64,000 nt of DNA from an archaeon. Lineage in GTDB: Archaea; B1Sed10-29; WALL01; JAGHAM01. The notes under the pieces were generated by a model. It was not told the origin of the DNA. It did no database searches and saw only the letters and a list, made by a program, of their open reading frames with translations. A program made the translations under genes and the position numbers. Location: the NCBI GenBank assembly GCA_021107635.1, contig JAIOSL010000038.1, forward strand, positions 3,512-67,511. Reading direction: 5' to 3'. Below are positions 2-28,854 of this stretch, one piece after another (position 1 is the first letter of the stretch; the number at the start of each line of letters is the position of its first letter).

Positions 2-1039
2 CAAGAAGACCTCAACGAATTCGTTATCCGACTATCACAACGCTGCGGAAGACACATCTCAGTAGCAGAACCCTTACTAGACGCAGCACTACCAGACGGA
101 TCCAGAGTACAAGCCACGTTCTCCTCTCATCGCGATATCGCAATGCATGGCTCCACGTTCACAATAAGGAAATTCACAAAAGACCCACTCACAATAATAG
201 ACATAGTCAACTTTGGAACAGTCCCCCCAATGATAGCAGCATACCTCTGGCTAGCCATAGAATACGGACACTCCCTACTCATTGCAGGAGGAACAGCAAC
301 AGGAAAAACATCATTCCTAGGCGCGCTCTCCATGTTCTTACCTGCTGACGCAAAAATAGTCAGCATAGAAGACACTCCAGAAGTCAGACTACCACACGAA
401 CACTGGGTACAAAAAGTAGTTAGAACAGGATTCGGAAGAGCAGACTTGACAGGCAGAAAACAAGGCGAAGTCACAATGTACGACTTGCTTAGAGCAGCAC
501 TACGTGAACGTCCAGACGAAATCATCGTAGGAGAAGTAAGAGGAAAAGAAGCATACGTGCTGTTCCAAGGAATGGCTACTGGACACAGTGGAATGGCCAC
601 TATCCACGGAGACTCTGTTGACTCAGTAATGCACCGTTTGCAAACCAAACCAATCAATCTTTCTCCTGGACTAATGCAACACCTAGACATAATCATTATT
701 CTAACTCGAGCAAAAGTAAAAGGCGTTGAAGTAAGACGCGCAAAACAAATCGTTGAAATACTCGGCTTGACACGTGACCAACAACCAATAGTGAACACTC
801 TATTCGAATGGACTCCAGCAGACGAAAGCTTCAAATTTTCTTCAGATAAATCATACATACTACAAGAAATCATTCATGAAAAAGGTGTTGAAGAAAGTGA
901 AGTATGGAAAGAACTTCAAAGAAGAACCAAAATCGTTGAATGGATGAGAAAAAATGATATAAGATACTACAAAGACGTTGGAAAAATAATCCAACGATAC
1001 TACTCAGATCCAGAAGCTATCCTAAGAGGAATAACGTGA
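2..1039 (+). CDS. Type IV filament/archaellum-type assembly ATPase (FlaI/PilB/VirB11 superfamily, T2SSE-like), 5' end cut by window edge
   Basis: Reading frame open from nt 2 (..LPDGSRVQATF..GSTFTIRKF); Walker A GGTATGKTS (nt 287-313), Asp box SIEDTPE, Walker B DEIIVGEVRGKEA, His box TGHSGMATIHG. Confidence 0.85.
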   Translation, partial: QEDLNEFVIRLSQRCGRHISVAEPLLDAALPDGSRVQATFSSHRDIAMHGSTFTIRKFTKDPLTIIDIVNFGTVPPMIAAYLWLAIEYGHSLLIAGGTATGKTSFLGALSMFLPADAKIVSIEDTPEVRLPHEHWVQKVVRTGFGRADLTGRKQGEVTMYDLLRAALRERPDEIIVGEVRGKEAYVLFQGMATGHSGMATIHGDSVDSVMHRLQTKPINLSPGLMQHLDIIIILTRAKVKGVEVRRAKQIVEILGLTRDQQPIVNTLFEWTPADESFKFSSDKSYILQEIIHEKGVEESEVWKELQRRTKIVEWMRKNDIRYYKDVGKIIQRYYSDPEAILRGIT

Positions 1040-1045
1040 GCTAAA

Positions 1046-1927
1046 ATGATCTCCACAAAAAAATACAGTCTCCTTGCATACTCCCTCTTCGAACCAATGA
1101 TACCATCCATACTACCATACTTCTCAAAACTTAAACAAATCCTCCACAAAACAGGAACAAAAACAACCCTAGAAGAATACGTAGCATCATTCATGCTAAC
1201 AGCAACAATACTAGTACCAGGAATATTTCTAGTAATACTAATCTACCTAAACTCCCTACTCAAAACAGGAATAGGACTAACAGTAATCTTTTCAATACTA
1301 GGAAGCCTCATAGTACTAGCAAGCATAATCGCAATATACCTAATGTATCCATCATACAAAGTCAACACACTCAAACACGAACTAGACAAACATATTCCAT
1401 TCGCAGCAATGCACATGGCAACCATTGCCGGAACCGGCGTGCCACCACACATGATATTCAAAATGATAGGAGACTTCGAAGAATACGGAGAAGTAGCCAA
1501 AGTATGCAGAAAAGTCTACAGAAACATCTCAGTGCTAGGTTATGACACCATCAGCGCACTCTCAAAAGAAGCACAAATAACACCCTCAAACAACTTCCGA
1601 GACCTACTCTGGAGTATTGTCGCAGTCACTCGCAGTGGAGGAGATCTCAGAGAAATGCTCTTGAAAAGAGCCGAAGCATTAATGGATGAAGAACGAAGAA
1701 CAGAAGCAAAATATATTGACACACTATCAATGCTAGCAGAAATCTACTCCACAATATTCGTAGCAGGAACAGTAGTAATTTTCGTGCTAGTCGCAATCAT
1801 GGGAATCATCGGAGGACTGCCACTACCAATGAGACTAGTACTACAAGCAACAACATACTTCATAATACCACTAGCATCAATAGCATTTATCCTAGTAATA
1901 GAAAGCAGCAAACCATCAGGAGTCTAA
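1046..1927 (+). CDS. Platform membrane protein, single T2SSF-like domain (FlaJ/TadB-like half)
   Basis: 293 aa; starts 6 nt after ATPase stop; N-terminal TM helices, helical domain (HIPFAAMHMATIAGTGVPP..VAVTRSGGDLREML), C-terminal TM helices. Confidence 0.7.
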   Translation: MISTKKYSLLAYSLFEPMIPSILPYFSKLKQILHKTGTKTTLEEYVASFMLTATILVPGIFLVILIYLNSLLKTGIGLTVIFSILGSLIVLASIIAIYLMYPSYKVNTLKHELDKHIPFAAMHMATIAGTGVPPHMIFKMIGDFEEYGEVAKVCRKVYRNISVLGYDTISALSKEAQITPSNNFRDLLWSIVAVTRSGGDLREMLLKRAEALMDEERRTEAKYIDTLSMLAEIYSTIFVAGTVVIFVLVAIMGIIGGLPLPMRLVLQATTYFIIPLASIAFILVIESSKPSGV

Positions 1928-1929
1928 AA

Positions 1930-3192
1930 ATGGAAGAAAAAAAATCATTCATGGACTGGTTCCTAGGGAAAAAAACCAAAAAAACAACCAAAGCAAACCT
2001 ACCGCTCAAAACCAAAATTAGATATGAACTCAGAAAAGAAAAATGGAAGCCAGTTGCAGCATCAATAGTAACAGCACTAATACTGATTGTACTAGGAACC
2101 ATCTTCTTCAGAACAAACCTTGCACTACTAGTAATAGTAGTGTTTTTCGGCACTAGCATGCCAATAGCAATATACATTTACCTGAAACAAAGAAGACTCG
2201 AAAGCATAGAAGAACAATTTCCAAATTTCCTCAGAGACATAGCAGAATTCAAAAGATCTGGCCTTCCCCTGAACAGAGCCATTCAAAACACAACCAAAAA
2301 TGATTACGGACAACTAACCTCAGAAGTCAAAAGAATGGCACTTGAACTTTCTTGGGGAGTATCATTCCAAAAAACACTCGAAAAATTTTCAGAAAGAACC
2401 AACAGTCACATAATTGAAAGAGCAGTCTCAATAATTGTAGTAGCCCAATCAAGTGGAGGAGAAGTAACCGAAGTTCTAGACACTGTCTCCGCAGACCTAA
2501 GAAAACTCAAAGAAATAGAAAAAGAACGTAAAAGCAAACTCTCAGTCTACACTCTAACAATATACGCAGTCTACCTACTCCTACTCTTCATAATAATCAT
2601 GCTAATGGGCTCCTTTGTGCCATCAATACCAAAAATCCAAGCAGCAGGCAAGTTCATGGGAGGAGGCCTAGAAGAAACTATAACAGAATTTGAGTTTAGG
2701 ACATTGTTATTCCATGTTAGCTTAATAGAAGCATTCTTCGCTGGCCTGATTTCAGGAGACATGGGAGAAGGAAAAATAACTGCAGGAATAAAACACGCCA
2801 TAATTTTAGTACTAATAACAATGCTAGCATTCCAGCTTGTCCCACCAAGTCCAGCAACATACAAAATAGCAGACTCAATATTAGACATCCCGCCATCACA
2901 AGGAACACCAACAGAAGGAATAGAAAGCATAACACATCTTACAGACACCTTCGATAACAAAGAAATAGCACGACTAGTAGGAGAAAAAGCAAAAGAACGA
3001 GGACTCGCACGGCATAAAGGAATAACCTCCGCAGACATCAGCTTCAACGCCCTGTCAGGAGAGTGCATACCATGCGCAGAAGGAAAAATAGTAGTACTAC
3101 CCAACAAAGTCACAGTACACGAACAAGTACCAATAAAATACAAAGTAAGATACTCAGGAACACAATACCAAATAATGTTTAGAACAGCATGA
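1930..3192 (+). CDS. Platform membrane protein, second T2SSF-like domain (FlaJ/TadC-like half) with ~120-aa C-terminal soluble extension
   Basis: 420 aa; FPNFLRDIAEFKRSGLPLNRAI..VVAQSSGGEVTEVL resembles a T2SSF domain; flanking TM helices; 2 nt after previous stop. Confidence 0.7.
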   Translation: MEEKKSFMDWFLGKKTKKTTKANLPLKTKIRYELRKEKWKPVAASIVTALILIVLGTIFFRTNLALLVIVVFFGTSMPIAIYIYLKQRRLESIEEQFPNFLRDIAEFKRSGLPLNRAIQNTTKNDYGQLTSEVKRMALELSWGVSFQKTLEKFSERTNSHIIERAVSIIVVAQSSGGEVTEVLDTVSADLRKLKEIEKERKSKLSVYTLTIYAVYLLLLFIIIMLMGSFVPSIPKIQAAGKFMGGGLEETITEFEFRTLLFHVSLIEAFFAGLISGDMGEGKITAGIKHAIILVLITMLAFQLVPPSPATYKIADSILDIPPSQGTPTEGIESITHLTDTFDNKEIARLVGEKAKERGLARHKGITSADISFNALSGECIPCAEGKIVVLPNKVTVHEQVPIKYKVRYSGTQYQIMFRTA

Positions 3193-3671
3193 GGATTAAA
3201 ATGAAAAAAGGAGTAAGCGGAATAGAATTTATAGTTGCAGTAACATTCTTCCTAATTGCATTCTGGTACGTGTTCATAGAAACAAGCGAAATGATAATGG
3301 ACAAACCAGTGCAAGTCGATGTCAGACAACCAGCACTACAATTCTATTCAGGATACATAATAAAAAATCCAGGTGAACCAGCAGACTGGGATGAAAACCC
3401 AGATGATTTCGCCCTAGCCTACTACGACGAAAAAACACACCGCAACATACTAGACCACACAAAACTAAACTATGCAAACCAAACCAACTGCAGCTCTTTG
3501 ACACCCGCAATAATGAACGGCATAGACATAGGATTCAAAGTAACAAGCCAATACGGAACATGGCAATGCCAAAACCCACCAAGAAAAGACGCAATGATAA
3601 CAAGACTAGTCTACATACACGTTCCCAGAAGAACTCAATACGCAGGCACTTTGGAGGTATGGGTAGCATGA
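3189..3671 (+). CDS. Pilin-like protein with class III (prepilin-type) signal peptide
   Basis: 160 aa; N-terminus MRIKMKKG-VSGIEFIVAVTFFLIAFWYVF (basic residues, Gly, hydrophobic helix, Glu at +5 after Gly); ATGA overlap with upstream gene. Confidence 0.5.
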   Translation: MRIKMKKGVSGIEFIVAVTFFLIAFWYVFIETSEMIMDKPVQVDVRQPALQFYSGYIIKNPGEPADWDENPDDFALAYYDEKTHRNILDHTKLNYANQTNCSSLTPAIMNGIDIGFKVTSQYGTWQCQNPPRKDAMITRLVYIHVPRRTQYAGTLEVWVA

Positions 3672-4111
3672 AAAACATTAAATACCATCACTCCTTCTAT
3701 AAAATAAGAAATAAAGGATTCAGCAAAATACTTGAACTTGTACTAGTGCTTGTTTTGCTATTCTCACTCGTCATAACAGTAAGCCAAAATATTCCACCCA
3801 CAACAACAAGCAAACACAACCTACAAGTACTATCACGCTACGCATCAGACATTAGAAACATGATATGTAACTCCGAGCGCGACAGAAGAATCATGATAAA
3901 AAATGCGACTATGACCACTATCAACCAATCCATCAATTACATAGCACCACCAGATCTCAAACATCGCATAGTAATCCTGAATACCACAGATGACAGCCTA
4001 ATCCAAGCCACGGGATACCCAAACCCAGATGAAGAAAATTTGATGACCGCATCATGCATCATAGTAGATGATGAAACCACAATAGAAGCAGAGGTAATGG
4101 TATGGTACTAG
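3668..4111 (+). CDS. Pilin-like protein (class III signal-like N-terminus)
   Basis: In-frame ATG 3668 forms ATGA overlap with upstream stop (alt ATG 3659 behind GGAGGT); ..KIRNKG-FSKILELVLVLVLLFSLVI; ORF-track start 3560 lies inside the upstream gene. Confidence 0.45.
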   Translation: MKNIKYHHSFYKIRNKGFSKILELVLVLVLLFSLVITVSQNIPPTTTSKHNLQVLSRYASDIRNMICNSERDRRIMIKNATMTTINQSINYIAPPDLKHRIVILNTTDDSLIQATGYPNPDEENLMTASCIIVDDETTIEAEVMVWY

Positions 4112-5379
4112 GAAAACGCGCACAATTCTTTCTCATAATACTAGTATTCATGATAATCATAATCGTCGGCCTTGCTTATTACGCAATAGAATCACGCAAC
4201 CTACCAGCAGAAACCAGTGCAACCCCAGAAAGAGGAACACCACTGCTCTCACAAATAAAATCAGAAATCCTGAATGCACTCGAACGCAAACCATACACAG
4301 GAAAAAACATCAGCGAATACTATACCACGTTTCACAGAGAAGCAAACCGAACCAACTTTGACCTAAGCATAAACTGCAACGAAACAAACACCACAACCGG
4401 AGCAAACAACTACCCAAAATATGACATTGAATGTATACTAGACTTATCCTGGAAAAACGCCAATTTAACCACCAGTTTTACTCATAGTTACACAGTCCCA
4501 TACGAAATAATAACATACTTAGATTCTGATTATACCACAGAAAGCGATTATTTCAACCTTAACGACACAATATACTATAGGATTACAGGAAGAAACAACG
4601 ACAAAATCAACTTTACAGCAACACGCCAAAACACCCAAAAAAACACTCAAAACCACACCCTTTCCGACCACTACTCAGACGGCAGCTTTACAGTAGATGC
4701 AGGAGGAGCCTGGATCCTAAAAGCAGACAACTACAACACCTCAGAAATAAGCTATAAAACAATATATGTACAAGAAATAGAAATAAAAATAACCATTGAA
4801 GGAACATGCCCAGGCTGGTGCCCAAGAAACAGTTACATAAGAGGAGAAAACTTCAGATACAACATTGAAACAATCAACGTAAAAGGTCACCCAGTAAGCG
4901 TACCAATAATGATTACAGTACAACGTCCAGACGGCACACCTCCAGTAGGAGAATACGACCTAGAAACACTAACCAACACAAGCGGCATTTTTATCAGCGA
5001 AAATCAGACAATCCATTCAAGCGAAGTAGTAACAAACCTCACAATAAAAGTCACAGAACTAGACTACTACTCATACAACACCACCACCATCCAAATACTC
5101 GCACAAAACTATGACAGATTCATAGAAGTACCTGCAGAAGACATGAACTACACAGCACTCTCAAATGAAACCTTCAGTTCAACCTGCGGATACGACACTT
5201 GGTTTACCAACAGCACCCAAAACTATTACAACGGAAGCCTCGACATACCATTCTACCGCGAAAAAACTGATGAAACCACAATCAGACTCAACCAAACCAC
5301 AAAAACCATTGACCTACCCCAAGTGCACGCAAAAGTCCTGCACATCATAGGAGCAAGACATAACATAAGTGAAGAATAA
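4102..5379 (+). CDS. Large pilin-like/exported glycoprotein (class III signal-like N-terminus)
   Basis: 425 aa; MVLGKRAQ-FFLIILVFMIIIIVGLAYY; many N-x-S/T sequons (NETNTTTGANN, NLTTS, NFTAT); short overlaps with both neighbours. Confidence 0.5.
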   Translation: MVLGKRAQFFLIILVFMIIIIVGLAYYAIESRNLPAETSATPERGTPLLSQIKSEILNALERKPYTGKNISEYYTTFHREANRTNFDLSINCNETNTTTGANNYPKYDIECILDLSWKNANLTTSFTHSYTVPYEIITYLDSDYTTESDYFNLNDTIYYRITGRNNDKINFTATRQNTQKNTQNHTLSDHYSDGSFTVDAGGAWILKADNYNTSEISYKTIYVQEIEIKITIEGTCPGWCPRNSYIRGENFRYNIETINVKGHPVSVPIMITVQRPDGTPPVGEYDLETLTNTSGIFISENQTIHSSEVVTNLTIKVTELDYYSYNTTTIQILAQNYDRFIEVPAEDMNYTALSNETFSSTCGYDTWFTNSTQNYYNGSLDIPFYREKTDETTIRLNQTTKTIDLPQVHAKVLHIIGARHNISEE

Positions 5380-8300
5380 TGAAAAAAATAGCATTAATTG
5401 CACTAGCCCTGATACTCATCTCGCCAGCACTAGCACAAAAAGAAGAAATAAAAACAATCACAGCATCACAACCCTGGATCTTCCTAGAAGAAAAATGCAT
5501 CCCAGAGACCTGTAACCTCAATGACTATTGTACCGCTTATGGCAGTTGGTCCTGTCATGATGACTGCAAACGAATAAGAAGCAAAACCTGCTACGACTAC
5601 TGCTGCAACCCTGCCTGCGTACTCTGCGACACAACCATACAATATCAATACAGCAACTGTGCAATTGAGACAGTATGCTCGGGAGGCACTTGCAGTAGTG
5701 GAACATGCGATGAAGGAACAGACTGCACAAACATCTGCACGAGACGACCATGGTTTAAAAAATGTAACGGAGTAGGCAGTTGCAGTATAGAAGGAGGCAC
5801 CAACTACTACTGTAGCGGAAACCAGCACTGCAGCGGAGGAAGCTGCGTGAGCGGAAACTGTGGAACCTGCAAGCAATGCGAAGGCCTCGGAGACTGCAAC
5901 AACGTCGCCTCAGGAACAGACCCGTACGGCGACTGCAGCACATGGGAATGCCAGACAGGAGACTGCAGCGGAGGAAGCTGCTCTGTCTACAGCGATGGAA
6001 GAAAAGACAGTTGTGGAACCTGTGAATACTGCAATGATGGCGACTCTCCTTGCGATTCCATTCCAAACGGCCAAGACCCATTCGGAGAGTGCTCGTCAAG
6101 CTCCTACCAAAGCTGCACTCCCAGCGGAGAAATAAGCGCGTGTGGGTGGCAGCAAGCCAGTGGAGATTGCAACGGAGGAGGCGCGTGCGGATGGGGCTCC
6201 TGCAATGATTGTGGCCCCCATGAAGCATCGACCAGCAGCTGTTACTCTGACCTAGCCCACTGCAACTCTGCCTGCCTCGACGGGTTCGAGTGCGACGAAC
6301 ACGCGGACTGCTCTGACGACTGTGGAGTAACCCACACAGAAGATCTAAGCATCTATCACTGTTCCGATAACTGTGATTGTTATAAACTAGACACGCTTTC
6401 TTGTAGCCCTAGAGGCGAGTACTCGCCATGCGACCAAGCATCATGCAACGGAGCCACCTACAATTGCACTGTAAGCAATGAAGGAGAATGGGCGTGGAGA
6501 CTGTCTGTACAAGCACCCGAAGCAGAAACTAACTGCACTGACGGATACGATAACGATTGTAATGGACTCTCAGACAGCCAAGAAAACATTTGCCAACCCC
6601 CAGAATGGCAAAACCAAGGACAGAACGCCTCAAGCGTTTTAATCGGAGGGCAACTGCTTTTATACGCACAAGGAAGAGACAGCATAGCATTAAACGAATC
6701 ATGGCTTTCAACCAACGAAAGCGGTTCCTGGCAAAATTATAGCACGTGGGGCAACTGCTCAGGCACACCAACCAACTGCACAAATTACACTGACACCACC
6801 AACTGCACTGGCGCAGGCTGTTCATGGGACAGCGCTGACTGTTACGGCACATGCACTGGCTGCAGCAAATTCAGTAATTCTGAGGACTGTGCCAAGCAAG
6901 GAGGATGCTCCTGGGAAGAAACAAGCAGTTGTGCAGGAACAGTAACCGCATGCTCAAGCCTCTCAGATTCAACCTCCTGTAACAATCAATACGGCTGTAG
7001 CTGGACTCCAGGAAGCTGCAGTGGTTCCTGCTTTTGTGGGCTCATTCCAAGCTGTGAATGTGACGCAATAGGCTGTGAAATTATGATAAAAATGGGACCA
7101 CCCCCAGAAGAGAAGTGTATAGGATTATGCACATGTGCCATAGCAAATGATCAAGCATGCTGTGAAGACCATTCTTGCACTTGGACTGCAGGCAGCTGCA
7201 GTGGCACGGCAACCACATGCCCAAACATAGACAACGCCACAGGCTGCGGAACACAAGAAGATTGCTCATGGAATGTCACCTGTGAATCAGGAGATGTTGA
7301 CATAGAACAAACAGCCAATGATGTGGGCTACAACCTTGCATTGTATAGTTACACAGCACAAACATTCAAAACAAATGGTGCTATAAGAGTCGACCAAGTA
7401 GATGTGAACATAAACTGCGGGAAATGCAGCGGAACCGTCTACATGGCAATAACCAACACAGATGTTTTCGGAAATCCAAGCACAACAGTATATGGAAACA
7501 CCACAGTCACCGGAATCAATGGTACACCACAATGGGTCAGCGCAGACTATACCAGTGACATACCAGAACTTGCTGCCAGCACTACGTACGCATTAGTAAT
7601 ACTCAAACCAACAACATCACTTGACTACCTTTGGTACTACAACAGCAGCAGTAGCACATATACAAACGGTTCTGCAAAATACTATAACAGCGGATGGTAC
7701 AATATTAACGGAGACTTCACATTCAAAATATACGGCAATTGTTCAGGATCCAACGGCGAATGCAACGGCACATGTACCAACTGCACCACCTATGGAACTT
7801 CTTCCCATTGCAGCAACCAAGACGGATGCACATGGGACAACGAAGACTGCTCAGGCACGCCATCTAACTGCAACACACATAACAGCACAGTCTGCGACAA
7901 GTATGGCTGCAGCATCGCGCCAGGAGAACACGGTTCACCAATGAACATGAACGAAACAGTAAACACGTGGACCTGGTCAAACTTTACATGGCAAAACGTA
8001 AGCGTTGAATTCAACAATAGTGTCTGCTGGAAAATCTGGTACTGGGACACCCACGAACTAGTCAACGGAACAAACACACTATGCTTTAACGTCACTCAAA
8101 ACACCGCACCAACAGTAATGCAAGTAGAAATAAGTCCAGAATATCCTACAGACGACCAAGCATTAACATGCAACTGGAAAACCGCTGACAACGAAACAGC
8201 CACCATCTACGCTAACGTAACCTGGCGTAAAAATGGAGGAATATGGGCAACATACAACCAACTAGAATGCTACAACGCAAGCTCATGCAGCACCAATGCA

Positions 8301-8699
8301 ACCACAGGACCAGGCAGCGCGAACACAACGCTAGGCGATGAATGGAACTGCAGCGTAACAGTCTATGACGTTCAAAGCCTTAACATGACAGGCTCAGACA
8401 ACACCACAATAATGAGAGACGTGACAGTAATATTCACTGACGGCCAATGGGAAACCTTTGCATGGGAAGACATTAAACCTCAATTATGGACCAACTCAAC
8501 AAACCAACTAGCAAACTTTACTTCAACCTGCACAGAAACAGGCAGTTCAGGAGTAACAAGATACACACCATACTGGACAATAGAACTAACAAACACAGAC
8601 AAAATAGTAAAACAAATAAAATTCGGAGACACAACAAACGCTGATTCTTATCAACTAACAGCAATAACCGTGGAAAAAGTAGAAGGAAGCACCCCCTGA
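5379..8699 (+). CDS. Cysteine-rich secreted giant protein (1105 aa), function unknown
   Basis: Sec-type signal MKKIALIALALILISPALA-QKE; very many Cys in repeated motifs (CSGGxC, G-x-DP-[YF]-G-[DE]-C, G-C-[ST]-W); CTDGYDNDCNG motif; dense N-x-S/T sequons. Confidence 0.8.
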   Translation: MKKIALIALALILISPALAQKEEIKTITASQPWIFLEEKCIPETCNLNDYCTAYGSWSCHDDCKRIRSKTCYDYCCNPACVLCDTTIQYQYSNCAIETVCSGGTCSSGTCDEGTDCTNICTRRPWFKKCNGVGSCSIEGGTNYYCSGNQHCSGGSCVSGNCGTCKQCEGLGDCNNVASGTDPYGDCSTWECQTGDCSGGSCSVYSDGRKDSCGTCEYCNDGDSPCDSIPNGQDPFGECSSSSYQSCTPSGEISACGWQQASGDCNGGGACGWGSCNDCGPHEASTSSCYSDLAHCNSACLDGFECDEHADCSDDCGVTHTEDLSIYHCSDNCDCYKLDTLSCSPRGEYSPCDQASCNGATYNCTVSNEGEWAWRLSVQAPEAETNCTDGYDNDCNGLSDSQENICQPPEWQNQGQNASSVLIGGQLLLYAQGRDSIALNESWLSTNESGSWQNYSTWGNCSGTPTNCTNYTDTTNCTGAGCSWDSADCYGTCTGCSKFSNSEDCAKQGGCSWEETSSCAGTVTACSSLSDSTSCNNQYGCSWTPGSCSGSCFCGLIPSCECDAIGCEIMIKMGPPPEEKCIGLCTCAIANDQACCEDHSCTWTAGSCSGTATTCPNIDNATGCGTQEDCSWNVTCESGDVDIEQTANDVGYNLALYSYTAQTFKTNGAIRVDQVDVNINCGKCSGTVYMAITNTDVFGNPSTTVYGNTTVTGINGTPQWVSADYTSDIPELAASTTYALVILKPTTSLDYLWYYNSSSSTYTNGSAKYYNSGWYNINGDFTFKIYGNCSGSNGECNGTCTNCTTYGTSSHCSNQDGCTWDNEDCSGTPSNCNTHNSTVCDKYGCSIAPGEHGSPMNMNETVNTWTWSNFTWQNVSVEFNNSVCWKIWYWDTHELVNGTNTLCFNVTQNTAPTVMQVEISPEYPTDDQALTCNWKTADNETATIYANVTWRKNGGIWATYNQLECYNASSCSTNATTGPGSANTTLGDEWNCSVTVYDVQSLNMTGSDNTTIMRDVTVIFTDGQWETFAWEDIKPQLWTNSTNQLANFTSTCTETGSSGVTRYTPYWTIELTNTDKIVKQIKFGDTTNADSYQLTAITVEKVEGSTP

Positions 8700-8708
8700 G
8701 GCACAATT

Positions 8709-9029
8709 ATGAAGATAAGTAAAGCAGAACTAGCAGACACGTGGTACAAAAGAGCACTAGGATTAATGTTCAGAACCAAACAAGAAAAACCATTAATATT
8801 CAAACTAGGCAGAGAAAGCCTTCTTGGAGCAAACATTCACTGCTGTTTCATGCGGTTCCCCATTGACGTGCTTTTCTTGAACGCGCAGAAGTGTGTGGTT
8901 GATAAAGCTTTGAACGTGAAGCCGTGGACTTTGAACGTGGCGCCAAGAAAACCAGCCAAGTATATCATTGAATTTCCAGTAGGACAAGGAACCGCCAAAC
9001 TCGGAGAACAAATCGAATGGAAAGAATAA
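8709..9029 (+). CDS. DUF192-family protein
   Basis: 106 aa; ..RALGLMFR..FMRFPIDVLFLN..KPW..KYIIEFPVG fits the DUF192 pattern as recalled (GLM-R, P-x-D-h-h-F, Y-h-h-E). Confidence 0.55.
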   Translation: MKISKAELADTWYKRALGLMFRTKQEKPLIFKLGRESLLGANIHCCFMRFPIDVLFLNAQKCVVDKALNVKPWTLNVAPRKPAKYIIEFPVGQGTAKLGEQIEWKE

Positions 9030-9074: not shown

Positions 9075-10637
9075 TTGAAGTTAGTAGTCGAGCAATGCAT
9101 AGAATGTGGAGCATGCATAGATGCCTGCCCACACGCTTTATCCACAAAAATATTAAACTGCACTCACTGCAACGCATGCGTAGAAACATGCACAAAAAAC
9201 GCTTTCTATGAAGTTATGCCTGGAATATATGCCATAGATCCAGAAAAATGCGATGGCTGCGGAGAATGCTTTTGTCCATACGATGCACTCGAAATCAAAG
9301 GATATGCAAGAAAATGCGATTTATGTCAAGGCAATCCTCGCTGCACACAAGTATGCTTGAAAGGCCTTTCTCTGGAAAAAACTAAAGAAGAAAAACAAAA
9401 AATGGCAGAAATACTAGGCTGGGAAAAAATTCAAGGAGAATATACTACTAACATAGAAGACCTTTTACCACACGAAATAACAATACTAGCCAACACCAAA
9501 GAAGTATTCAAAGAACTAATAAAAGAGAAAAACAGCAGTCTCTCACAAACACTTCAAGAATACCTTGAAGAAGAACACATAATACTGCCGAAACACAGAC
9601 AAGAAATACTAGAAAAAACATTAGAAAGAGAACTAAAAAGCTTTTCTATTCTAGACTCACTCCTAGAAGACGGACAACTAGAAGAAATAACCATAAACGG
9701 TCTAGACGCAATACGAGTATTCCATCGAGAAAAAGGATGGCAAAAAACAGACTTGAAATTCACTAAAACCGAAAAGATAATAGAACTAATCAACAAAATT
9801 GCCAGACCAATAGGAAGAAGAATAAGTCTTCAAAACCCAAGATTAAACGCAGTCCTTCCTAACGGTTCAAGATTACATGCAATTGTACCTCCACTAACAA
9901 AAGAACCAAACATGACAATACGAAAATTCAACAAACAACTATTCTCACCAAAAGAACTAGTAAAAAACAAAACCATAAGCGCAGAAGCCCTAGCATTCCT
10001 TTGGATGACCCTACAAAGCAACCTAAACATACTAATCTGTGGCTCCACAGGCTCAGGAAAAACCACTACTCTTGACTGTTTAGCAACATTCATCCCAAAA
10101 AAAGAACGCATTATCATCGTAGAAGAAATTCCAGAAGTGCAATTACCACACGCACACCAAGTAAGACTAATCGTTAACCCTTCCCTAAAAATCAGTATGA
10201 GCGACTTGATAACAGACACACTCAGAATGAGACCTGACCGCGTGATCATTGGAGAAATCAGAACAGAAAAAGAAGTCAAAGCATACATGAACTCAATCCT
10301 AGCAGGACAAGGCAAAGGATCAATAGCTACCTTCCACGCACTAGACGCAAAAGAAGCACTTCACAGACTTGAACTACTAGGAGCTAAAAAAAATGAACTC
10401 AAAGCAATAGACCTAATAATAATCCAAAAAAGATGGACTCAATACGACAAAGAAAAAAGCACTGAAAAACGAAGAATAGTAAGCATAACCGAACAAACAA
10501 ACCCCATATACAAATATGACTACAGCCAAGACACCATCAAAAAAATTCAAGAACCAAAACTCAAACAAGAACTAGAAAAAACCTTCAAAAACTATGAAAA
10601 AGAACTTCTTGAACGAGAAAAAAAACTTCAAGGATAA
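9075..10637 (+). CDS. Ferredoxin-like (4 x Cys4) domain fused to FlaI/VirB11-type secretion ATPase
   Basis: TTG start behind GGGGAGAG; residues 8-94 hold 16 Cys in four CxxCxxCxxxC-like groups; Walker A GSTGSGKTT (nt 10041-10067), Walker B PDRVIIGEIRTEKE, His box GQGKGSIATFHA. Confidence 0.8.
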   Translation: MKLVVEQCIECGACIDACPHALSTKILNCTHCNACVETCTKNAFYEVMPGIYAIDPEKCDGCGECFCPYDALEIKGYARKCDLCQGNPRCTQVCLKGLSLEKTKEEKQKMAEILGWEKIQGEYTTNIEDLLPHEITILANTKEVFKELIKEKNSSLSQTLQEYLEEEHIILPKHRQEILEKTLERELKSFSILDSLLEDGQLEEITINGLDAIRVFHREKGWQKTDLKFTKTEKIIELINKIARPIGRRISLQNPRLNAVLPNGSRLHAIVPPLTKEPNMTIRKFNKQLFSPKELVKNKTISAEALAFLWMTLQSNLNILICGSTGSGKTTTLDCLATFIPKKERIIIVEEIPEVQLPHAHQVRLIVNPSLKISMSDLITDTLRMRPDRVIIGEIRTEKEVKAYMNSILAGQGKGSIATFHALDAKEALHRLELLGAKKNELKAIDLIIIQKRWTQYDKEKSTEKRRIVSITEQTNPIYKYDYSQDTIKKIQEPKLKQELEKTFKNYEKELLEREKKLQG

Positions 10638-10639
10638 AC

Positions 10640-11179
10640 ATGCACACACAAAAAGTAGAAAAAGAACTACCACTCGCACTAAGAACACTCTCAACCGAAC
10701 TAGCAATCAACATGCCATTCGAACAAAGTCTTGAAAGCCTCTCAGAAGGACATGGAGAACTATCAAAAGACTTTCAGAAAATAACCCAAAGAATAAACGC
10801 AGGCTACACAGTAAGAGAATCACTCCTAGCCTGGACACAAGACACCCCCTCAAAACAAGTAAAAAGAGTCGCGCTCCAACTAATCTCAAACTACGAAAAC
10901 AAAGAAGACCCACTTGCTCTCAGAAAACTAAGCGAAGAACTACTCTCTCAACAAAAAACCAAAATGCGCGAATATACAAGCCAACTAGCAGTATATTCTC
11001 TTTTATTCATAGCAGTCTCAGCAATATTTCCTGCATTGTTTCAAGCATATGTAATCATAGGATCCAGTTTCATGAGCCAAACAGTCACACCAGAACAAGC
11101 ACTACTCATTCCAATAATCGGGTTTCCGCTAGCAGACATAGCCATTCTAGCAATAATTAAAAAGAGGAAACCGTTATGA
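10640..11179 (+). CDS. Small T2SSF-like platform protein
   Basis: 179 aa; LPLALRTLSTELAINMPFEQSLESL..LALRKLSEELL helical domain then 2 TM helices; 2 nt after ATPase stop. Confidence 0.6.
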   Translation: MHTQKVEKELPLALRTLSTELAINMPFEQSLESLSEGHGELSKDFQKITQRINAGYTVRESLLAWTQDTPSKQVKRVALQLISNYENKEDPLALRKLSEELLSQQKTKMREYTSQLAVYSLLFIAVSAIFPALFQAYVIIGSSFMSQTVTPEQALLIPIIGFPLADIAILAIIKKRKPL

Positions 11180-11898
11180 ACATGGAACTGCTTTTGATAG
11201 TGCCAATAATAGCAATAGCTTATGCTATTCCTAAATGGAAAAAAGCCAAAAAGATAAGAGAAATAGAAGAAAATCTTCCAGAAGCACTACTGCAAGTATC
11301 AACCCTAACAGAAATAACAAGTTTTGAACGATTAATTGAAAAAATGGCTGAAGGACAAAACCAGCTCTCACAAGAATTCAAAAAAGTAAACCGTCAAATA
11401 AAAAATGGCATCCCAGTAAAAGAATCCCTCCAAAGCCTAGAACAAGAAAGTCCGTTACTCTCAAGAACAGCCAAACTTTTAAAACAAAGCTATCGCACAG
11501 GAGCAAACATGAGCAAAGCACTACGCGAAACAGCTGAAGACATCACTCAAACACAAGAAATACTAAGAGAACGCTCTTCCAGCACAATGATAGAAAAATA
11601 CACCCTGTTGCTTGCAGGAGGCTGCATCGTACCGCTCATTTTAGGAGTGCTTGTAGCACTAATTAACAACATAGGATTCATAGACATTGGCATGGGCATG
11701 AACATTCAAACCAGACAAGCCATAGTAAACAACGCTTCTCTCGCCAACCAAATATACCTAGCAGAATATGCCCTCCTAGCATCAGTTTTTGTGAGCCTGC
11801 AAGAAACCAAACCAGAAAAAGCATTAATATACGCTTGTGTGCTAATCCCATTAAGTTTGATATTATTCCACCTAGCAAGCACTAGCATAGCTTTTTAA
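11176..11898 (+). CDS. Small T2SSF-like platform protein (second half)
   Basis: 240 aa; N-terminal TM, NLPEALLQVSTLTEITSFERLIEKM..SKALRETAEDI helical domain, C-terminal TMs; ATGA overlap with upstream gene. Confidence 0.6.
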   Translation: MNMELLLIVPIIAIAYAIPKWKKAKKIREIEENLPEALLQVSTLTEITSFERLIEKMAEGQNQLSQEFKKVNRQIKNGIPVKESLQSLEQESPLLSRTAKLLKQSYRTGANMSKALRETAEDITQTQEILRERSSSTMIEKYTLLLAGGCIVPLILGVLVALINNIGFIDIGMGMNIQTRQAIVNNASLANQIYLAEYALLASVFVSLQETKPEKALIYACVLIPLSLILFHLASTSIAF

Positions 11899-11922: not shown

Positions 11923-12669
11923 ATGGGACAAGTGGAATTCAAAATAGTAGGAAAACCAAAATTAGCAGGATACACGCTAATAGAAGGATTTCCAGGCATT
12001 GGTTTGATAGGAACGATAGCAGCAGGATACCTAACAGAAAAACTAGAAACAGAATGCATTGGATACGTTTTCTCAAAAGATTTTCCGCCAATGGCATCAA
12101 TCCACAAAGGCAAACCAGTATTCCCAGCAAGAATATACATAGACAAAAAACACAAGCTAGTCATACTATTCTCAGAGCTTGTTGTACCATCAAACACAGT
12201 CTATGACATCTCCACAACCATACTAGAATGGGCTAAACAAAACAAGATAAAAAGAATCATTTCACTAGCAGGAATGACAGCCAAACCAGGAGAAGAACCA
12301 AAAAAACCAATAATATATGGAATAGCCGCAGATGATGATATCGCCAAACAAATGGTAGACAGAAACGTAAAACTAATAACAGAAGGCGTTACCACAGGTG
12401 TTTCCGGCGTTCTAATGGCACAATGCAGAGTAGAGAATTTTCCGGCAATGAGCTTGCTCATAGAATCCAAGCGAGGATATCCTGACCCGGGAGCAGCAGC
12501 TGAACTGCTAGAAAAACTAGAAGAATTCCTAGACTTTGACATCAAAACTCAAGACCTAATGGAAGAAGCAAAACAAATAGAAATCAAAATGAGACGCATG
12601 CTCAGCAGAATCAGTTCAGGCAAACGACAATACGAACGAGCAGAAAAACACTCCCTAATGTACGGGTAA
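11923..12669 (+). CDS. PAC2-family protein (proteasome assembly chaperone-like)
   Basis: 248 aa; ..YTLIEGFPGIGLIGTIAAGYL..PARIY..LAGM.. typical of the archaeal PAC2 family as recalled. Confidence 0.55.
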   Translation: MGQVEFKIVGKPKLAGYTLIEGFPGIGLIGTIAAGYLTEKLETECIGYVFSKDFPPMASIHKGKPVFPARIYIDKKHKLVILFSELVVPSNTVYDISTTILEWAKQNKIKRIISLAGMTAKPGEEPKKPIIYGIAADDDIAKQMVDRNVKLITEGVTTGVSGVLMAQCRVENFPAMSLLIESKRGYPDPGAAAELLEKLEEFLDFDIKTQDLMEEAKQIEIKMRRMLSRISSGKRQYERAEKHSLMYG

Positions 12670-13593
12670 AAAGCTCTTCTCATTATGTGAAAGAATAACA
12701 AGCGTTTCAGTATCATACACATGCCTAGTAGAATAAATGTTTCTGATATTATCAAAACAATGAGAAATATCACTAGAACGCATCACAGCAAGCAAATCAT
12801 GCCTGAAAGCCAAAGAAAACAACTCATGAACACACTCCTCTCCAACAAGCCGTTTAATCACCTGCTCTCGCTCACCTGGAATAGCATCAATAAACACACA
12901 AGAACTTACCCCAAACCCCAAATCATTATACACCTCAGGCGGAATAAAAATACTCTTCTTTAATAACACTCCATTACGCCATAACAAACCCCACTTACGC
13001 GAAACAGTATTCCTATGAAAACCCAATGCATCAGCAACCTTCTTCAAAGACGCTCCAGTATTAACAAACTTATACTTAAGAATAGCCAGGGAAGTATCAT
13101 CCAAAACATCACACTCAAGCGACAAATCATGAACCTGATTTAATTTTTCCACTCTCATGACAGGAACCAAAGAAATTCGTGAAATAGTATCCCTAAAATT
13201 AACTCCAAGCCACTCAATCAAATTCTGTAACTCCTTATGCTCAGAATAAAACACCTTAGCAAACATATCCATTTGACCAGTCAAAGTAAAAATAGAAAAC
13301 ACATTAGGATGAGACAAAATCTTCTCATCCAAATCCTTTCTATCCAAATTCCTAGTAATATCCAAAGCACACCAAGCCATATTCTTATAACCAAGCTTAT
13401 ACGGATTAACCCTATAACGATAAGAAAGAATAATCCCCTTACGCTCAAACTGCTTTATCTTATACGCAACAGTCTGAGGACTAACCCTCAAAATCTTACC
13501 AATCTCATAAATAGAATAATGCGCGCCCTTCAACATCAAAAACTTCAACAAACGATGATCCAAATCCGACAAATAAACCTTTTCACGAGCCAT
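12655..13593 (-). CDS. Transcriptional regulator with two Lrp/AsnC-type winged-HTH domains
   Basis: 312 aa; LDHRLLKFLMLKGAHYSIYEIGKILRVSPQTVAYKIKQFERKGII and LDDTSLAILKYKFVNTGASLKKVADALGFHRNTVSRKWGLLWRNGVL. Confidence 0.55.
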   Translation of the reverse strand: MAREKVYLSDLDHRLLKFLMLKGAHYSIYEIGKILRVSPQTVAYKIKQFERKGIILSYRYRVNPYKLGYKNMAWCALDITRNLDRKDLDEKILSHPNVFSIFTLTGQMDMFAKVFYSEHKELQNLIEWLGVNFRDTISRISLVPVMRVEKLNQVHDLSLECDVLDDTSLAILKYKFVNTGASLKKVADALGFHRNTVSRKWGLLWRNGVLLKKSIFIPPEVYNDLGFGVSSCVFIDAIPGEREQVIKRLVGEECVHELFSLAFRHDLLAVMRSSDISHCFDNIRNIYSTRHVYDTETLVILSHNEKSFLPVH

Positions 13594-14071: not shown

Positions 14072-14608
14072 ATGAAAATTAATAATTTTTTTAAGTTAAT
14101 GTCACCCAAGCTTACTGTACTAGTTACTACTGTTGATGAAAAGGGACGTCCAGAGGTTTCAACGTTCTCTTTTGTTACGCCTATTTCGTTTAATCCACCT
14201 ATGTTAGGATTATCTGTGGGTCCTAACAAGCACAGTTATTGGAACATGACGCGTGTTAAAGAGTTTGTGGTTAACATTCCTAGTGAAAAAATGCTTGATC
14301 AGGTTTGGGAAGCTGGCGGCAAATATGATCAGGAGGAAAGCAAGATAGAAAAACTTGGTTTCAAGACTTTGCCTAGTGATAAAGTCAGGCCTCCAAGGCT
14401 TGCGGATTGTCCAGCACATATTGAGTGCTATGAAGAGTTTTCAAAGAAAGCAGGAGATCATGTGATGGTGCTTGGTAGGGTAGTGGCAGTGCATGCGGAT
14501 GAGGATATGGTTGATTCTAAGGGTAATCTTAAGGTTGATGTGGTCAGGCCTCCTTTGCACGTGAGCGATAATCTTTTCGCTTTTCCGTATGTAACTAAGA
14601 GTGTTTGA
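14072..14608 (+). CDS. Flavin reductase-like FMN-binding domain protein
   Basis: 178 aa; ..LTVLVTTVDEKGRPEVSTFSFVTPISFNPPMLGLSV.. and ..GDHVMVLGRVVAVH.. typical of the flavin reductase-like split-barrel family; GGGGGG SD. Confidence 0.6.
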   Translation: MKINNFFKLMSPKLTVLVTTVDEKGRPEVSTFSFVTPISFNPPMLGLSVGPNKHSYWNMTRVKEFVVNIPSEKMLDQVWEAGGKYDQEESKIEKLGFKTLPSDKVRPPRLADCPAHIECYEEFSKKAGDHVMVLGRVVAVHADEDMVDSKGNLKVDVVRPPLHVSDNLFAFPYVTKSV

Positions 14609-20240: not shown

Positions 20241-20260
20241 GGATAGATATACTATCAATG

Positions 20261-28810: not shown

Positions 28811-28854
28811 GAATAAAAAACGCAAGAGTTTTATTTATAGGTGATGGTAGCCTG

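Follow-up and report, generated by a model that had tools for sequence, protein, structure and literature searches.

A predicted four-cluster polyferredoxin domain fused to a type-IV-filament ATPase in a DPANN archaeon

Few prokaryotic motors have been studied as well as the ATPases of type-IV-filament (TFF) machines, and the inputs known to act on these ATPases are protein partners and c-di-GMP. N-terminal extensions are the usual input or docking modules in this secretion-ATPase family: the N1E domain of GspE binds GspL, MshEN binds c-di-GMP, and the N-terminus of FlaI is likewise an input/docking module. The Zn tetracysteine of GspE and PilB sits in the C-terminal lobe. In another ATPase class, the ABC ATPase ABCE1/Rli1 carries an N-terminal 2x[4Fe-4S] domain, which serves as a moving or docking element and not as a metabolic redox centre. 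DPANN archaea depend on contact with a host, which their pili are presumed to mediate. A 2026 survey of TFF systems proposes a docking role for extra domains, and reports that archaeal TFF ATPases show no fusions. An Fe-S protein, AapX, is required for assembly of the Aap pilus of Sulfolobus, in a role that is unknown (PMC11178785).

Here we describe a single open reading frame (ORF) of 520 aa from a 64,000-nt stretch of an archaeal contig (JAIOSL010000038.1; hereafter the window), in which a DmsB/NrfC-like polyferredoxin with four Cys groups is fused to an ATPase of the FlaI/VirB11 superfamily (hereafter Fd-ATPase; Table 1). The ORF begins with TTG, the first start codon past the upstream stop in the ORF list; a Shine-Dalgarno-like stretch, GGGGAGAGAGAA, lies directly 5' of it, and homologs starting with M-K/R-L-V at the equivalent position support this start. 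Public gene calls for an identical sequence (P0001) begin at the internal Met48, which halves the ferredoxin domain. In the full-length AF2 model, pLDDT is 94.4 and pTM 0.81, so that the ferredoxin and ATPase parts are predicted to form one packed unit. An assembly chimera or frameshift was rejected, because the reading frame runs on without a break and its architecture recurs in over 100 homologs of independent assemblies. Judged from sequences and models, this architecture together with its four predicted clusters is almost certainly correct.

Table 1. Features of the Fd-ATPase locus, in nucleotide positions of the window
Feature	Coordinates	Strand	Basis
Second TFF ATPase, T2SSE + PilB3_C, cut by window start	2..1039	+	Pfam
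Two T2SSF platform genes of upstream system (1046-1927, 1930-3192)	1046..3192	+	Pfam
Three pilin-like genes (3189-3671; probably 3668-4111; 4102-5379)	3189..5379	+	sequence reading
Giant secreted Cys-rich protein, 1106 aa	5379..8699	+	sequence
DUF192 gene, conserved partner directly upstream of Fd-ATPase	8709..9029	+	Pfam E = 4.3e-13
Fd-ATPase, whole ORF: polyferredoxin domain + T2SSE-family ATPase	9075..10637	+	ORF list; Pfam; AF2; homologs
Predicted N-terminal four-[4Fe-4S]-type polyferredoxin domain, residues 1-100	9075..9374	+	Fer4-family HMMs, model, Foldseek
Cys group I, C8-x2-C11-x2-C14-x3-C18-P19	9096..9131	+	sequence
Cys group II, C29-x2-C32-x2-C35-x3-C39	9159..9191	+	sequence
Cys group III, C59-x2-C62-x2-C65-x-C67-P68	9249..9278	+	sequence
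Cys group IV, K80-C81-x2-C84-x5-C90-x3-C94	9315..9356	+	sequence
Linker helix, ferredoxin to ATPase, with conserved L114-G115-W116 (nt 9414-9422)	9375..9467	+	alignment, model
T2SSE ATPase core, residues 189-453, N- and C-terminal lobes	9639..10433	+	Pfam, PDB sequence matches, Foldseek
Walker A, GSTGSGKT, residues 323-330	10041..10064	+	sequence
Walker B / Asp box, IIIVEE, residues 346-351	10110..10127	+	sequence; E350, E351 invariant
RMRPD box, residues 384-388	10224..10238	+	sequence; R384 to D388 invariant
His box, TFH, residues 419-421	10329..10337	+	sequence; H421 invariant
Platform half-protein 1, T2SSF, 179 aa	10640..11179	+	Pfam E = 5.6e-15
Platform half-protein 2, T2SSF, 240 aa	11176..11898	+	Pfam E = 4e-13
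PAC2-family gene, C-terminus ...LMYG	11923..12669	+	Pfam E = 1.5e-46
Flavin_Reduct-domain gene	14072..14608	+	Pfam E = 1.3e-28

Sixteen of the 18 Cys of Fd-ATPase fall within residues 8-94, the others being C322 and C335. They form four groups (8, 11, 14, 18; 29, 32, 35, 39; 59, 62, 65, 67; and 81, 84, 90, 94), with the motifs CxxCxxCxxxCP, CxxCxxCxxxC, CxxCxxCxCP and CxxCx5CxxxC exactly as listed in the original prediction. The check it had proposed, an HMM search with the Fer4 families and T2SSE, placed both domain types above the Pfam cut-offs. For the whole protein, the ferredoxin models score 30.2 bits (Fer4_7, cut-off 27), 28.8 (Fer4_9, 27), and 27.1 (Fer4, 21.1), and for the isolated N-terminal domain (N-domain) 39.1 (Fer4, 21.1), 38.2 (Fer4_7, 27), and 36.7 (Fer4_9, 27). 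The DmsB-type dicluster model Fer4_11 (PF13247) matches 13 of 32 aligned N-domains (best E = 4.8e-11), not including the window's own, and is also precomputed for many homologs. A model of the isolated N-domain (pLDDT 87.6) was matched by Foldseek to 6x1o_B, the WOR5 small subunit (E = 2e-5, TMq 0.67), 9mqx_G (TMq 0.66), 8c0z_C (AorA, 0.63), and 2vpw_B (PsrB, 0.60); the domain was also matched to the solved four-cluster subunit FdhB, and its family profile matches MvhB, FwdF, HycB, and 9mqx_E with E values from 1e-15 to 1e-42. The likeness to DmsB/NrfC-type proteins, first proposed from the motifs, is seen in fold and profile matches as well. Together, these results point to a compact polyferredoxin of the DmsB/HycB type in the first ~100 residues, with four complete predicted [4Fe-4S] sites in a chain. 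No further copy of the module is present elsewhere in the window (tblastn). It is joined to the ATPase by a linker with a helix at residues 104-114 (AF2 model); in this linker, all 92 aligned homologs have G115, and at least 90% of them W116.

A search for the same fusion in other archaea had been proposed as a check, and more than 100 homologs do carry it, at 38-64% identity and labelled Diapherotrites/Iainarchaeota and Micrarchaeota. PF27713 (UCP018868) is precomputed on many homologs of Fd-ATPase. Across the 92 aligned homologs (38-64% identity), the 16 Cys are fully or almost fully conserved: C18 is invariant in group I, C35 and C39 in group II, all four Cys in group III, and K80, C81, and C90 in group IV, and conservation is at least 90% for C8, C11, and C14, for C29 and C32, and for C84 and C94. 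Sixteen Cys within 87 residues, conserved to this degree in the alignment, are far beyond chance. The other N-domain residues are moderately conserved (0.47 vs 0.62-0.68 in the ATPase lobes). In most relatives, group II has the DmsB-like form CxHCxxxxCxxxCP. Group III of Fd-ATPase is an atypical CxxCxxCxCP, two residues shorter than in most homologs, and this short CxC form is also found in P0002-P0004, P0028-P0030, and the DUF362-like protein P0124; group IV of Fd-ATPase is without the usual trailing Pro.

All four sites are complete in 90 of the ~120 family members. In canonical cross-ligation, as in NarH/DmsB and clostridial ferredoxins, a cluster is held by the first three Cys of one group and the last Cys of its partner group. 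In P0083, P0117, and others, Cys1-3 of group I and Cys4 of group IV are missing together and Cys4 of group I is kept, which means that exactly one canonical ferredoxin cluster has been lost. In P0158 and P0232, only the two central sites remain (IV1-3+I4 and II1-3+III4). The association of Cys losses has a Fisher p of about 8e-7 among sequences that are not phylogenetically independent, and the sets of lost Cys match canonical cross-ligation. These patterns bear on whether the Cys-rich region could instead be a Zn-ribbon-like or disulfide module that holds no Fe-S in vivo, or the fusion an assembly or frameshift artefact. The unusual spacing of group III, the missing Pro of group IV, and the lack of a Fer4_11 match to the window's N-domain, though the model matches 13 of 32 aligned ones, would suit such a reading. 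However, several Fer4 HMMs score above cut-off, the predicted fold matches solved four-cluster proteins, Cys loss obeys ferredoxin cross-ligation rules, the uninterrupted ORF is common to more than 100 independent assemblies, and the sole split case is a clean ATGA coupling and not a random frameshift. We consider it extremely improbable that the region is anything other than an Fe-S module in a genuine fusion.

A complete FlaI/VirB11-type ATPase core had been predicted in the same ORF, and it is borne out by a T2SSE match (PF00437, residues 189-453, 137.4 bits vs a cut-off of 24.9, E = 6.5e-40) and by the Walker A, Walker B, and His box motifs; in Walker A, G323, T325, G328, K329, and T330 are invariant (92 homologs). 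PDB sequence matches are to GspE2 (2oap), CpaF (8rkd), and FlaI (4ii7), with E from 1e-39 to 1e-42, and Foldseek returned 4ii7_C (E = 1.2e-31), 8rkd_A (2.3e-31), and 2oap (7.9e-31), with TMq about 0.6. The ATPase part is a FlaI/GspE2/CpaF-like member of the T2SSE superfamily, and is predicted to be catalytically intact. It is an orthologue of neither FlaI nor TadA, because it scores 192.4 bits against a cut-off of 550 for the NCBIfam FlaI equivalog (NF058587) and 180.6 bits against 373 for TadA/CpaF (TIGR03819). An archaellum motor was rejected on the FlaI equivalog score, which is far under the cut-off, and because no Pfam-recognisable archaellum gene lies nearby; the scanned parts of the window contain none, though several neighbouring ORFs match no Pfam. 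A C-terminal tetracysteine Zn site of the GspE/PilB type (CxxC...CxxC) is absent on sequence inspection, since the protein outside the N-domain has just two Cys, C322 and C335. The Cys-rich N-terminus is itself absent from 10 other archaeal T2SSE ATPases inspected and from the solved relatives, in agreement with the original prediction that canonical ATPases have no such domain. These 10 are the archaeal members of 80 loci returned by a contig scan with ATPase-core patterns, most of which were bacterial CpaF-like genes.

Comparison of 10 related loci shows a conserved order of DUF192, (Fd-)ATPase, two half-size T2SSF platform genes, and PAC2. DUF192 is upstream of the (Fd-)ATPase in eight related loci (L081-L087 and L090) and upstream of a separate ferredoxin gene in L089, and in L088 the upstream position holds a 107-aa gene with no Pfam match on record; a literature search on DUF192 gave nothing relevant. 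Platform half-protein 1 begins 2 nt past the ATPase stop, in a position conserved in all related loci, and the gene for half-protein 2 overlaps it by 4 nt, also in a conserved position. Both are without Cys or haem motifs, as read from their sequences. The PAC2 gene follows the platform pair in every related locus reaching far enough (L089 ends earlier), and this syntenic neighbour may be a part of the machine. A Flavin_Reduct gene lies at most three genes from PAC2 in the window, L081, L083, L084, L085, and L087 (6 of 9 judgeable loci), and is missing in L086, L088, and L090; its product is, speculatively, a candidate redox partner. The window locus and the related loci contain no strictly conserved redox partner, and pterin, hydrogenase, and anchor genes are absent from the window locus and all 10 related loci. 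A role as a DmsB-type oxidoreductase subunit was rejected, because catalytic and anchor genes are absent from every locus examined. In L088 and L090, no pilin gene is tightly linked to the Fd-ATPase. Rfam reports one tRNA; ARAGORN found none.

A ferredoxin-less second pilus locus with pilin-like genes usually adjoins the Fd-ATPase locus. In the window, the ATPase of this second system is 31% identical to Fd-ATPase, and its orthologs, present in L081, L084, L086, L087, and L089, are about 600-800 aa long with no Fer4 domain. The pilin-like genes match no Pfam family; their products have N-termini like class-III signal peptides (KKG/VSGIEF, NKG/FSKILE, and GKR/AQFFL, the slash marking the putative cleavage site), followed by hydrophobic helices. 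The giant protein encoded next has 105 Cys, 36 N-glycosylation sequons, and a Sec-type signal peptide, and is a candidate adhesin or cargo from its sequence. Upstream of DUF192, L081, L083, and L085 encode giant proteins of 1600-4100 aa, and L087 has a 613-aa protein there; the giant of L085 has Laminin_G/DUF2341 domains, and the giants of other loci are not obviously Cys-rich.

These neighbours are relevant to whether the four-cluster chain, which spans about 30-40 Å in solved relatives, might carry electrons from a cytoplasmic donor (reduced ferredoxin or the neighbouring Flavin_Reduct protein) to an acceptor at the membrane machine, either to mature cargo or pilins by reduction (for example, the Cys-rich giant protein) or to pass electrons to the outside or to a host. 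All of the closest folds belong to electron-transfer subunits (PsrB, WOR5-S, AorA, HycB, MvhB, FwdF), the chain is strictly conserved in most members, and both the frequent Flavin_Reduct gene (6 of 9 judgeable loci) and the 105 Cys of the window's secreted neighbour would fit. However, a catalytic oxidoreductase subunit, a quinone-binding anchor, and a haem protein are missing from all loci examined, the platform proteins have no Cys or haem motifs, and the giant neighbours elsewhere are not obviously Cys-rich, such as that of L085. In addition, the terminal clusters are lost first in some lineages, which would break a wire, and some orthologs are wholly without the ferredoxin domain. We regard an electron conduit of this kind as improbable, and it is a long shot that the six polyferredoxins of a hexameric motor (24 clusters) form a real electron pathway into the membrane machine. 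If such a pathway did exist, electron flow would power or gate the filament apparatus, or the apparatus would exchange electrons, or reducing equivalents for cargo, across the envelope, possibly towards the host of the DPANN archaeon. Such a redox-coupled motor for secretion or pili would have no described counterpart, and might explain why the unrelated Aap pilus needs AapX.

Comparison of orthologs indicates that the ferredoxin is a separable accessory module. In L089, a separate 125-aa ferredoxin gene (ending ...ILGWVKTK-stop) has an ATGA overlap with a 422-aa ATPase gene in the same context; the split gene stops just past LGW, and ATPase-only forms begin just ahead of LGW. One ortholog without ferredoxin was found in a T2SSF-T2SSF-PAC2 context, and ATPase-only and degenerate forms are present among 50%-identity representatives. 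Because one lineage encodes the module as a translationally coupled gene of its own and others have a shortened version or none, it is best described as accessory, which suits regulation or docking better than an indispensable part in catalysis. The coupling of filament assembly or secretion to redox state or electron carriers, suggested in the original prediction, is plausible.

Our preferred reading, to which we assign a probability of roughly 0.4, is that Fd-ATPase is the redox-gated cytoplasmic motor of a Tad/Epd-like TFF machine in a small DPANN archaeon of symbiotic type. The partners of the motor would be the pair of half-size T2SSF platform proteins whose genes follow directly 3'. Since N-terminal extensions in this family are usually input or docking modules, the polyferredoxin would by analogy most likely act as an input for redox state. 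Low-potential donors in the cytoplasm would reduce its clusters, exposure to electron acceptors or O2 would oxidise them or cause their loss, and the state of the domain would alter its packing against the ATPase N-lobe or the platform. The machine would then build filaments or secrete, probably to attach to a host or surface, only in a suitable redox or energy state. This gating mechanism is tentative: known Fe-S sensors of redox or O2 usually use one cluster, whereas electron wires are the usual setting of a four-cluster chain, no redox partner is strictly conserved, with the Flavin_Reduct gene in 6 of 9 judgeable loci, and a pilin gene tightly linked to this ATPase is missing in L088 and L090. 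Degenerate lineages that retain the domain yet lose clusters also fit a purely structural role. In such a role, the four clusters would rigidify an N-terminal lever or docking domain, redox would be outside the normal cycle, and nucleotide-driven lobe motion of the hexamer would shift the N-domain against the platform proteins or DUF192, as for the mobile domain of ABCE1/Rli1. This is consistent with the predicted tight packing of the N-domain on the ATPase (pTM 0.81) via the conserved LGW linker, with the retention of the fold and the two central sites in lineages without terminal clusters, with the absence of an obligate redox partner from the loci examined, and with the docking typical of N-terminal domains in this ATPase family, also hypothesised in the 2026 TFF survey. 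However, most lineages retain all 16 Cys, even with reduced genomes of ~0.7-1.2 Mb, which would be costly for rigidity alone, and the non-Cys conservation of 0.47 gives little indication that a broad docking surface has been conserved. ABCE1, moreover, is not homologous and offers an analogy only. A structural or mechanical module seems somewhat unlikely.

A conserved four-cluster module on a filament motor would make redox or iron status a direct input, and the conserved fusion suggests a link between filament assembly and the redox state of the cell. The 100-residue domain and its natural split version offer a testable handle on the timing of attachment-structure building in DPANN archaea, and natural three-, two-, and zero-cluster variants are available for comparison. 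The fusion may also bear on the unexplained AapX requirement of Sulfolobus pili. The original prediction knew of no description of the architecture; this holds for the literature searched, including Makarova 2016 (PMC4858521), the ARMAN Mia14 paper, and the 2026 TFF survey, but automatic annotation already gives many members both domains (for example, JGI 'CpaF family ATPase / Fe-S-cluster-containing hydrogenase component 2'). Members of the family can readily be overlooked, because gene calls at Met48 hide the domain and the survey reports no fusions.

Compared with known systems, Fd-ATPase has its superfamily and two-lobe fold in common with FlaI/ArlI (4ii7), A. fulgidus GspE2 (2oap), and TadA/CpaF (8rkd, 9e24), but the solved FlaI, GspE2, and CpaF relatives have no Fe-S domain. 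TadB/TadC and the archaeal 'system 1' have two platform proteins, like the T2SSF half-proteins beside Fd-ATPase, and at the level of the whole system the resemblance to TadA/CpaF lies in this two-platform-gene layout only. The N-domain has four Cys groups, 16 Cys, and its predicted fold in common with DmsB/PsrB(NrfC)/HycB/WOR5-S/AorA, MvhB, and FwdF, but is much more compact, at about 100 aa vs 150-200 aa; unlike these proteins, it forms one polypeptide with a P-loop motor and has no pterin, hydrogenase, or membrane-anchor partner. The N-terminal input domains of GspE, PilB, and MshE match it in position and in likely regulatory or docking logic, while folds and ligands differ. By analogy, ABCE1/Rli1 and Fd-ATPase would both be NTPase motors with an N-terminal ferredoxin-like Fe-S domain, but they differ in motor type (ABC fold vs RecA-like T2SSE hexamer), in cluster number (two vs four), and in cellular process. 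AapX is, like the predicted N-domain, an Fe-S protein in an archaeal type-IV pilus machine; set against the N-domain by description only, it is a separate protein (arCOG07320) of Thermoproteota and other lineages. The split version in L089 resembles the AapX arrangement, with the putative Fe-S protein as its own gene, beside that of the ATPase.

The Fd-ATPase, an N-terminal polyferredoxin fused to a T2SSE-family ATPase, appears in the ORF listing of the window as a single ORF of 520 amino acids (Table). It starts at a TTG, the earliest start codon past the upstream stop, with a purine-rich GGGGAGAGAGAA stretch ahead of it. Sixteen of its 18 cysteines lie within residues 8–94, as four groups whose positions and motifs agree exactly with the original prediction. 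A complete ATPase core had also been placed in this ORF, and Walker A, Walker B and the His box were located there, with a T2SSE match over residues 189–453 (Pfam, E = 6.5e-40). The proposed HMM check for Fer4 and T2SSE was run, and both domains exceed the Pfam gathering scores, several Fer4 families doing so in the whole protein; the isolated N-terminal domain (N-domain, residues ~1–100) scores 39.1 bits with Fer4, 38.2 with Fer4_7 and 36.7 with Fer4_9. The stop that might have separated a ferredoxin gene from an ATPase gene is absent from the window, where the ORF is uninterrupted.

Sought in other archaea, the same fusion is widespread among its relatives. A collection of 5.8 billion proteins gave at least 120 matches with 38–64% identity over 90–100% of the query, T2SSE and Fer4-type Pfam domains occur together in nearly all of the matches listed, and the organisms, where the source names one, are Candidatus Diapherotrites, Iainarchaeum or Micrarchaeota (DPANN archaea). 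The taxonomy of the family is that of the source labels on the homologs, and no rRNA was found in the 64-kb window. The JGI pipeline labels several homologs 'Flp pilus assembly CpaF family ATPase / Fe-S-cluster-containing hydrogenase component 2'. When 92 full-length members were aligned, each of the 16 cysteines proved invariant or was conserved in at least 90%, and the same holds for K80, G115, W116 and all ATPase boxes. When 1.84 billion 50%-identity representatives were compared with residues 1–250, 38 proteins were found at E ≤ 1e-10, with the fused architecture in roughly 25–30, which makes this a family of moderate size, confined to certain lineages. A Cys-rich N-terminus is absent from all ten other archaeal T2SSE ATPases compared (from Hydrothermarchaeota, Methanosarcinales, Methanomassiliicoccales, Woesearchaeota, other Micrarchaeota and DHVE2), which were drawn from a pattern scan of genome contigs, the pattern set being uninformative for the fusion. 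The fusion is real and conserved, and it is scarcely credible that the Cys-rich region is not an Fe-S domain or that the fusion is an artefact.

Gene calling has partly hidden this architecture. P0001, the one database entry with 100% identity, and a further homolog (P0010) lose half the domain because they are called from the internal Met48; such calls drop Cys groups I and II (region 9075–9215) and conceal the four-cluster domain. Homologs begin M-K/R-L-V at the TTG position, so the longer reading is correct, and Met48-type calls may account for some of the 'ATPase-only' entries in databases.

AlphaFold2 models the full-length protein with confidence (pLDDT 94.4, pTM 0.81). The ATPase part of the model matches FlaI (4ii7), TadA/CpaF (8rkd, 9e24) and A. 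fulgidus GspE2 (2oap) with Foldseek E ~1e-31, and sequence matches to the same structures reach E values of 1e-39 to 1e-42. The NCBIfam scores are far under their cut-offs for FlaI (192 against 550) and TadA (181 against 373), and the protein is therefore a member of the superfamily and an orthologue of neither. Modelled alone, the N-domain has a pLDDT of 87.6, and its best fold matches (TMq 0.60–0.67) are four-[4Fe-4S] subunits of tungsten/molybdenum enzymes: the WOR5 small subunit (6x1o_B), AorA (8c0z_C), polysulfide reductase PsrB (2vpw_B), 9mqx_G/E, pyrogallol transhydroxylase beta and FdhB (9vap_B). A profile built from 32 N-domains matches the polyferredoxin MvhB at 9e-42 and 9mqx_E over its entire length at 2e-20, and also FwdF, HycB, PsrB, FdnH and NarH. 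The fold and profile matches thus bear out the likeness to DmsB/NrfC-type proteins noted originally. The N-domain is unusually compact, with four sites in ~100 residues.

In clostridial and DmsB/NarH-type ferredoxins, a cluster is held by the first three cysteines of one group and the last cysteine of its partner group. Degenerate members of the Fd-ATPase family obey this cross-ligation rule, which supports a role of the cysteines as cluster ligands. In a subgroup of ~505 amino acids (including P0083, P0100, P0109, P0113, P0116, P0117 and P0120), the first three cysteines of group I and the fourth of group IV are both missing while the fourth of group I is kept ('VCPYE'), a pattern that is the loss of exactly one predicted cluster. 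Only IV1–3 with I4 and II1–3 with III4 remain in P0158 and P0232, and by analogy with NarH these would be the two central clusters. A crude motif count found both features in 88 proteins and neither in 7, the discordant ones being 3+3; the Fisher p of ~8e-7 for these counts is an illustration and not a probability, because the sequences are related. Four complete sites are present in 90 of the ~120 members. That some lineages retain the fold with fewer clusters would suit an N-domain serving as a redox-inert structural lever, as in ABCE1, which we regard as possible but somewhat doubtful.

The ferredoxin also occurs apart from the ATPase. In the related locus L089, a stop separating the two is a genuine natural variant: a 125-aa ferredoxin gene ends ...ILGWVKTK*, its stop overlapping the ATPase start as ATGA, and the product of the ATPase gene (P0105, 422 aa) shares 45% identity with the window protein. 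P0133 is a second stand-alone 125-aa form. The orthologous ATPase of L091 begins 'MDIGW', with stops in all three frames across the 84 upstream nt available and the T2SSF-T2SSF-PAC2 genes still downstream. Several 50%-identity representatives are ATPase-only and start just ahead of the conserved LGW linker motif, and others have degenerate Cys-rich N-termini. The split, trimmed and absent forms thus show the ferredoxin to be an accessory module, fused, split, trimmed or lost across lineages. A copy of Cys groups II–IV, 75–78% identical to that of the window and including the unusual CDGCGECFCPYDALEI motif, is found in P0124, a DUF362-like protein of 312 amino acids, and suggests that genes of a related organism recently exchanged the module; no paralogue of the module was found elsewhere in the window.

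Table. Positions of Fd-ATPase motifs and of genes in the window or, where named, in a related locus
Feature	Position	Strand	Remarks
Cys group I	C8xxC11xxC14xxxC18P
Cys group II	C29xxC32xxC35xxxC39
Cys group III	C59xxC62xxC65xC67P
Cys group IV	C81xxC84x5C90xxxC94
Walker A	residue 323		GSTGSGKT
Walker B/Asp box	residue 346		IIIVEE
RMRPD box	residue 384
His box	residue 419		TFH
Second type-IV-filament ATPase (T2SSE + PilB3_C)	2–1039	+	cut by window edge; 31% identical to Fd-ATPase
Two T2SSF genes	1046–3192
Three pilin-like genes	3189–5379		class-III-signal-peptide-like N-termini
Secreted protein	5379–8699	+	1106 aa, 105 Cys (9.5%)
DUF192	8709–9029
Fd-ATPase	9075–10637	+
Two short T2SSF genes	10640–11898		2-nt gap, then 4-nt overlap
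PAC2	11923–12669	+
AsnC-type regulator	12655–13593	-
Flavin_Reduct	14072–14608
Giant ORF	15549–20258	-	1569 aa; position conserved in L081, L082, L085
Third T2SSE ATPase	26522–28825	-	767 aa; flanking ORFs without Pfam match
Giant ORF	33470–42103	+	2877 aa
Giant ORF	42189–49082	+	2297 aa
tRNA	59990–60110	-	121 nt; Rfam match
Split ferredoxin and ATPase genes	L089 6627–8269		neighbourhood same as fused genes

Three T2SSE-family ATPases are encoded in the window, and only the middle one bears the ferredoxin domain; the edge-cut ATPase heads a pilin-containing locus. The core of DUF192, Fd-ATPase, two T2SSF genes and PAC2 recurs across the related loci L081–L091 at 38–64% identity, except that the upstream gene in L088 has no Pfam match and that in L089 and L091 PAC2 or DUF192 would lie beyond a contig end. 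A platform encoded as two half-size genes is the typical layout in Tad of bacteria and in 'system 1' of archaea. Upstream in L081, L084, L086 (pilin-like genes not called), L087 and L089 is a set of ATPase, platform and pilin genes lacking the ferredoxin, which is absent from L088 and L090. Every close structural relative of the N-domain is an electron-transfer subunit and a Flavin_Reduct gene recurs nearby (six of the nine judgeable loci, the window and eight related), both in favour of an N-domain that truly conducts electrons to an acceptor, either membrane or cargo; however, the loci examined contain neither an acceptor gene nor any catalytic subunit of an oxidoreductase, haem protein or quinone anchor, and the terminal clusters are lost first, so that such a conduit seems improbable.

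Other features of these loci are recorded here. The secreted protein between the pilin-like genes and DUF192 has 36 N-x-S/T sequons and no Pfam match. Giant proteins (1600–4100 aa) lie upstream of DUF192 in L081, L083 and L085, with Laminin_G/DUF2341 domains in L085, and a 613-aa protein does so in L087; the three giant ORFs of the window are typical of DPANN surface proteins. PAC2, which is proteasome-assembly-chaperone-like, comes after the two platform genes wherever a related locus reaches far enough (L089 ends earlier), and its C-terminus in the window (...LMYG) is similar to the HbYX proteasome-docking tail. DUF473 or Flavin_Reduct is often next in the window and related loci. In L090 (1–6036), of the three-cluster subgroup, the Fe-S assembly genes SufB, SufD and SufC, together with one for a CbiA/ParA-Fer4 protein, immediately precede DUF192 and the Fd-ATPase, which may be a coincidence of this one locus. 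Rfam matches a tRNA that is probably intron-containing (49.4 bits), whereas ARAGORN found none over the window.

Taken together, the data show a predicted, catalytically intact type-IV-filament (TFF) motor ATPase with a four-site polyferredoxin and its own platform pair. In ATPases of this family, an extension at the N-terminus serves for input or docking (GspE N1E, MshEN, the FlaI N-terminus), and the accessory behaviour of the ferredoxin, with its split, trimmed and lost forms, fits such a role. Extra N-terminal domains were proposed as interfaces for accessory components in a 2026 archaeal TFF survey. By analogy, the polyferredoxin may be a redox input to the motor, which is our preferred reading and to which we give a probability of about 0.4. 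Reduction, oxidation or loss of clusters would alter how the N-domain packs on the N-lobe of the ATPase or on the platform, and assembly of the filament, or secretion, would be permitted or prevented accordingly.

Unexpected in so well studied a motor family, the fusion shows strong conservation among host-dependent archaea with reduced genomes, and natural variants that are split or have lost clusters open the question to experiment. Each half comes from a familiar family, and automatic annotation in databases already assigns both domains. No published description of the architecture was found in the literature searched, in line with the original prediction, which knew of none. Makarova et al. 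2016 (PMC4858521) mention neither ferredoxin nor Fe-S, and the 2026 survey mentions Fe-S only for AapX, the arCOG07320 protein (Saci_2316) required for Sulfolobus Aap pilus assembly, which is the closest functional precedent for the Fd-ATPase.
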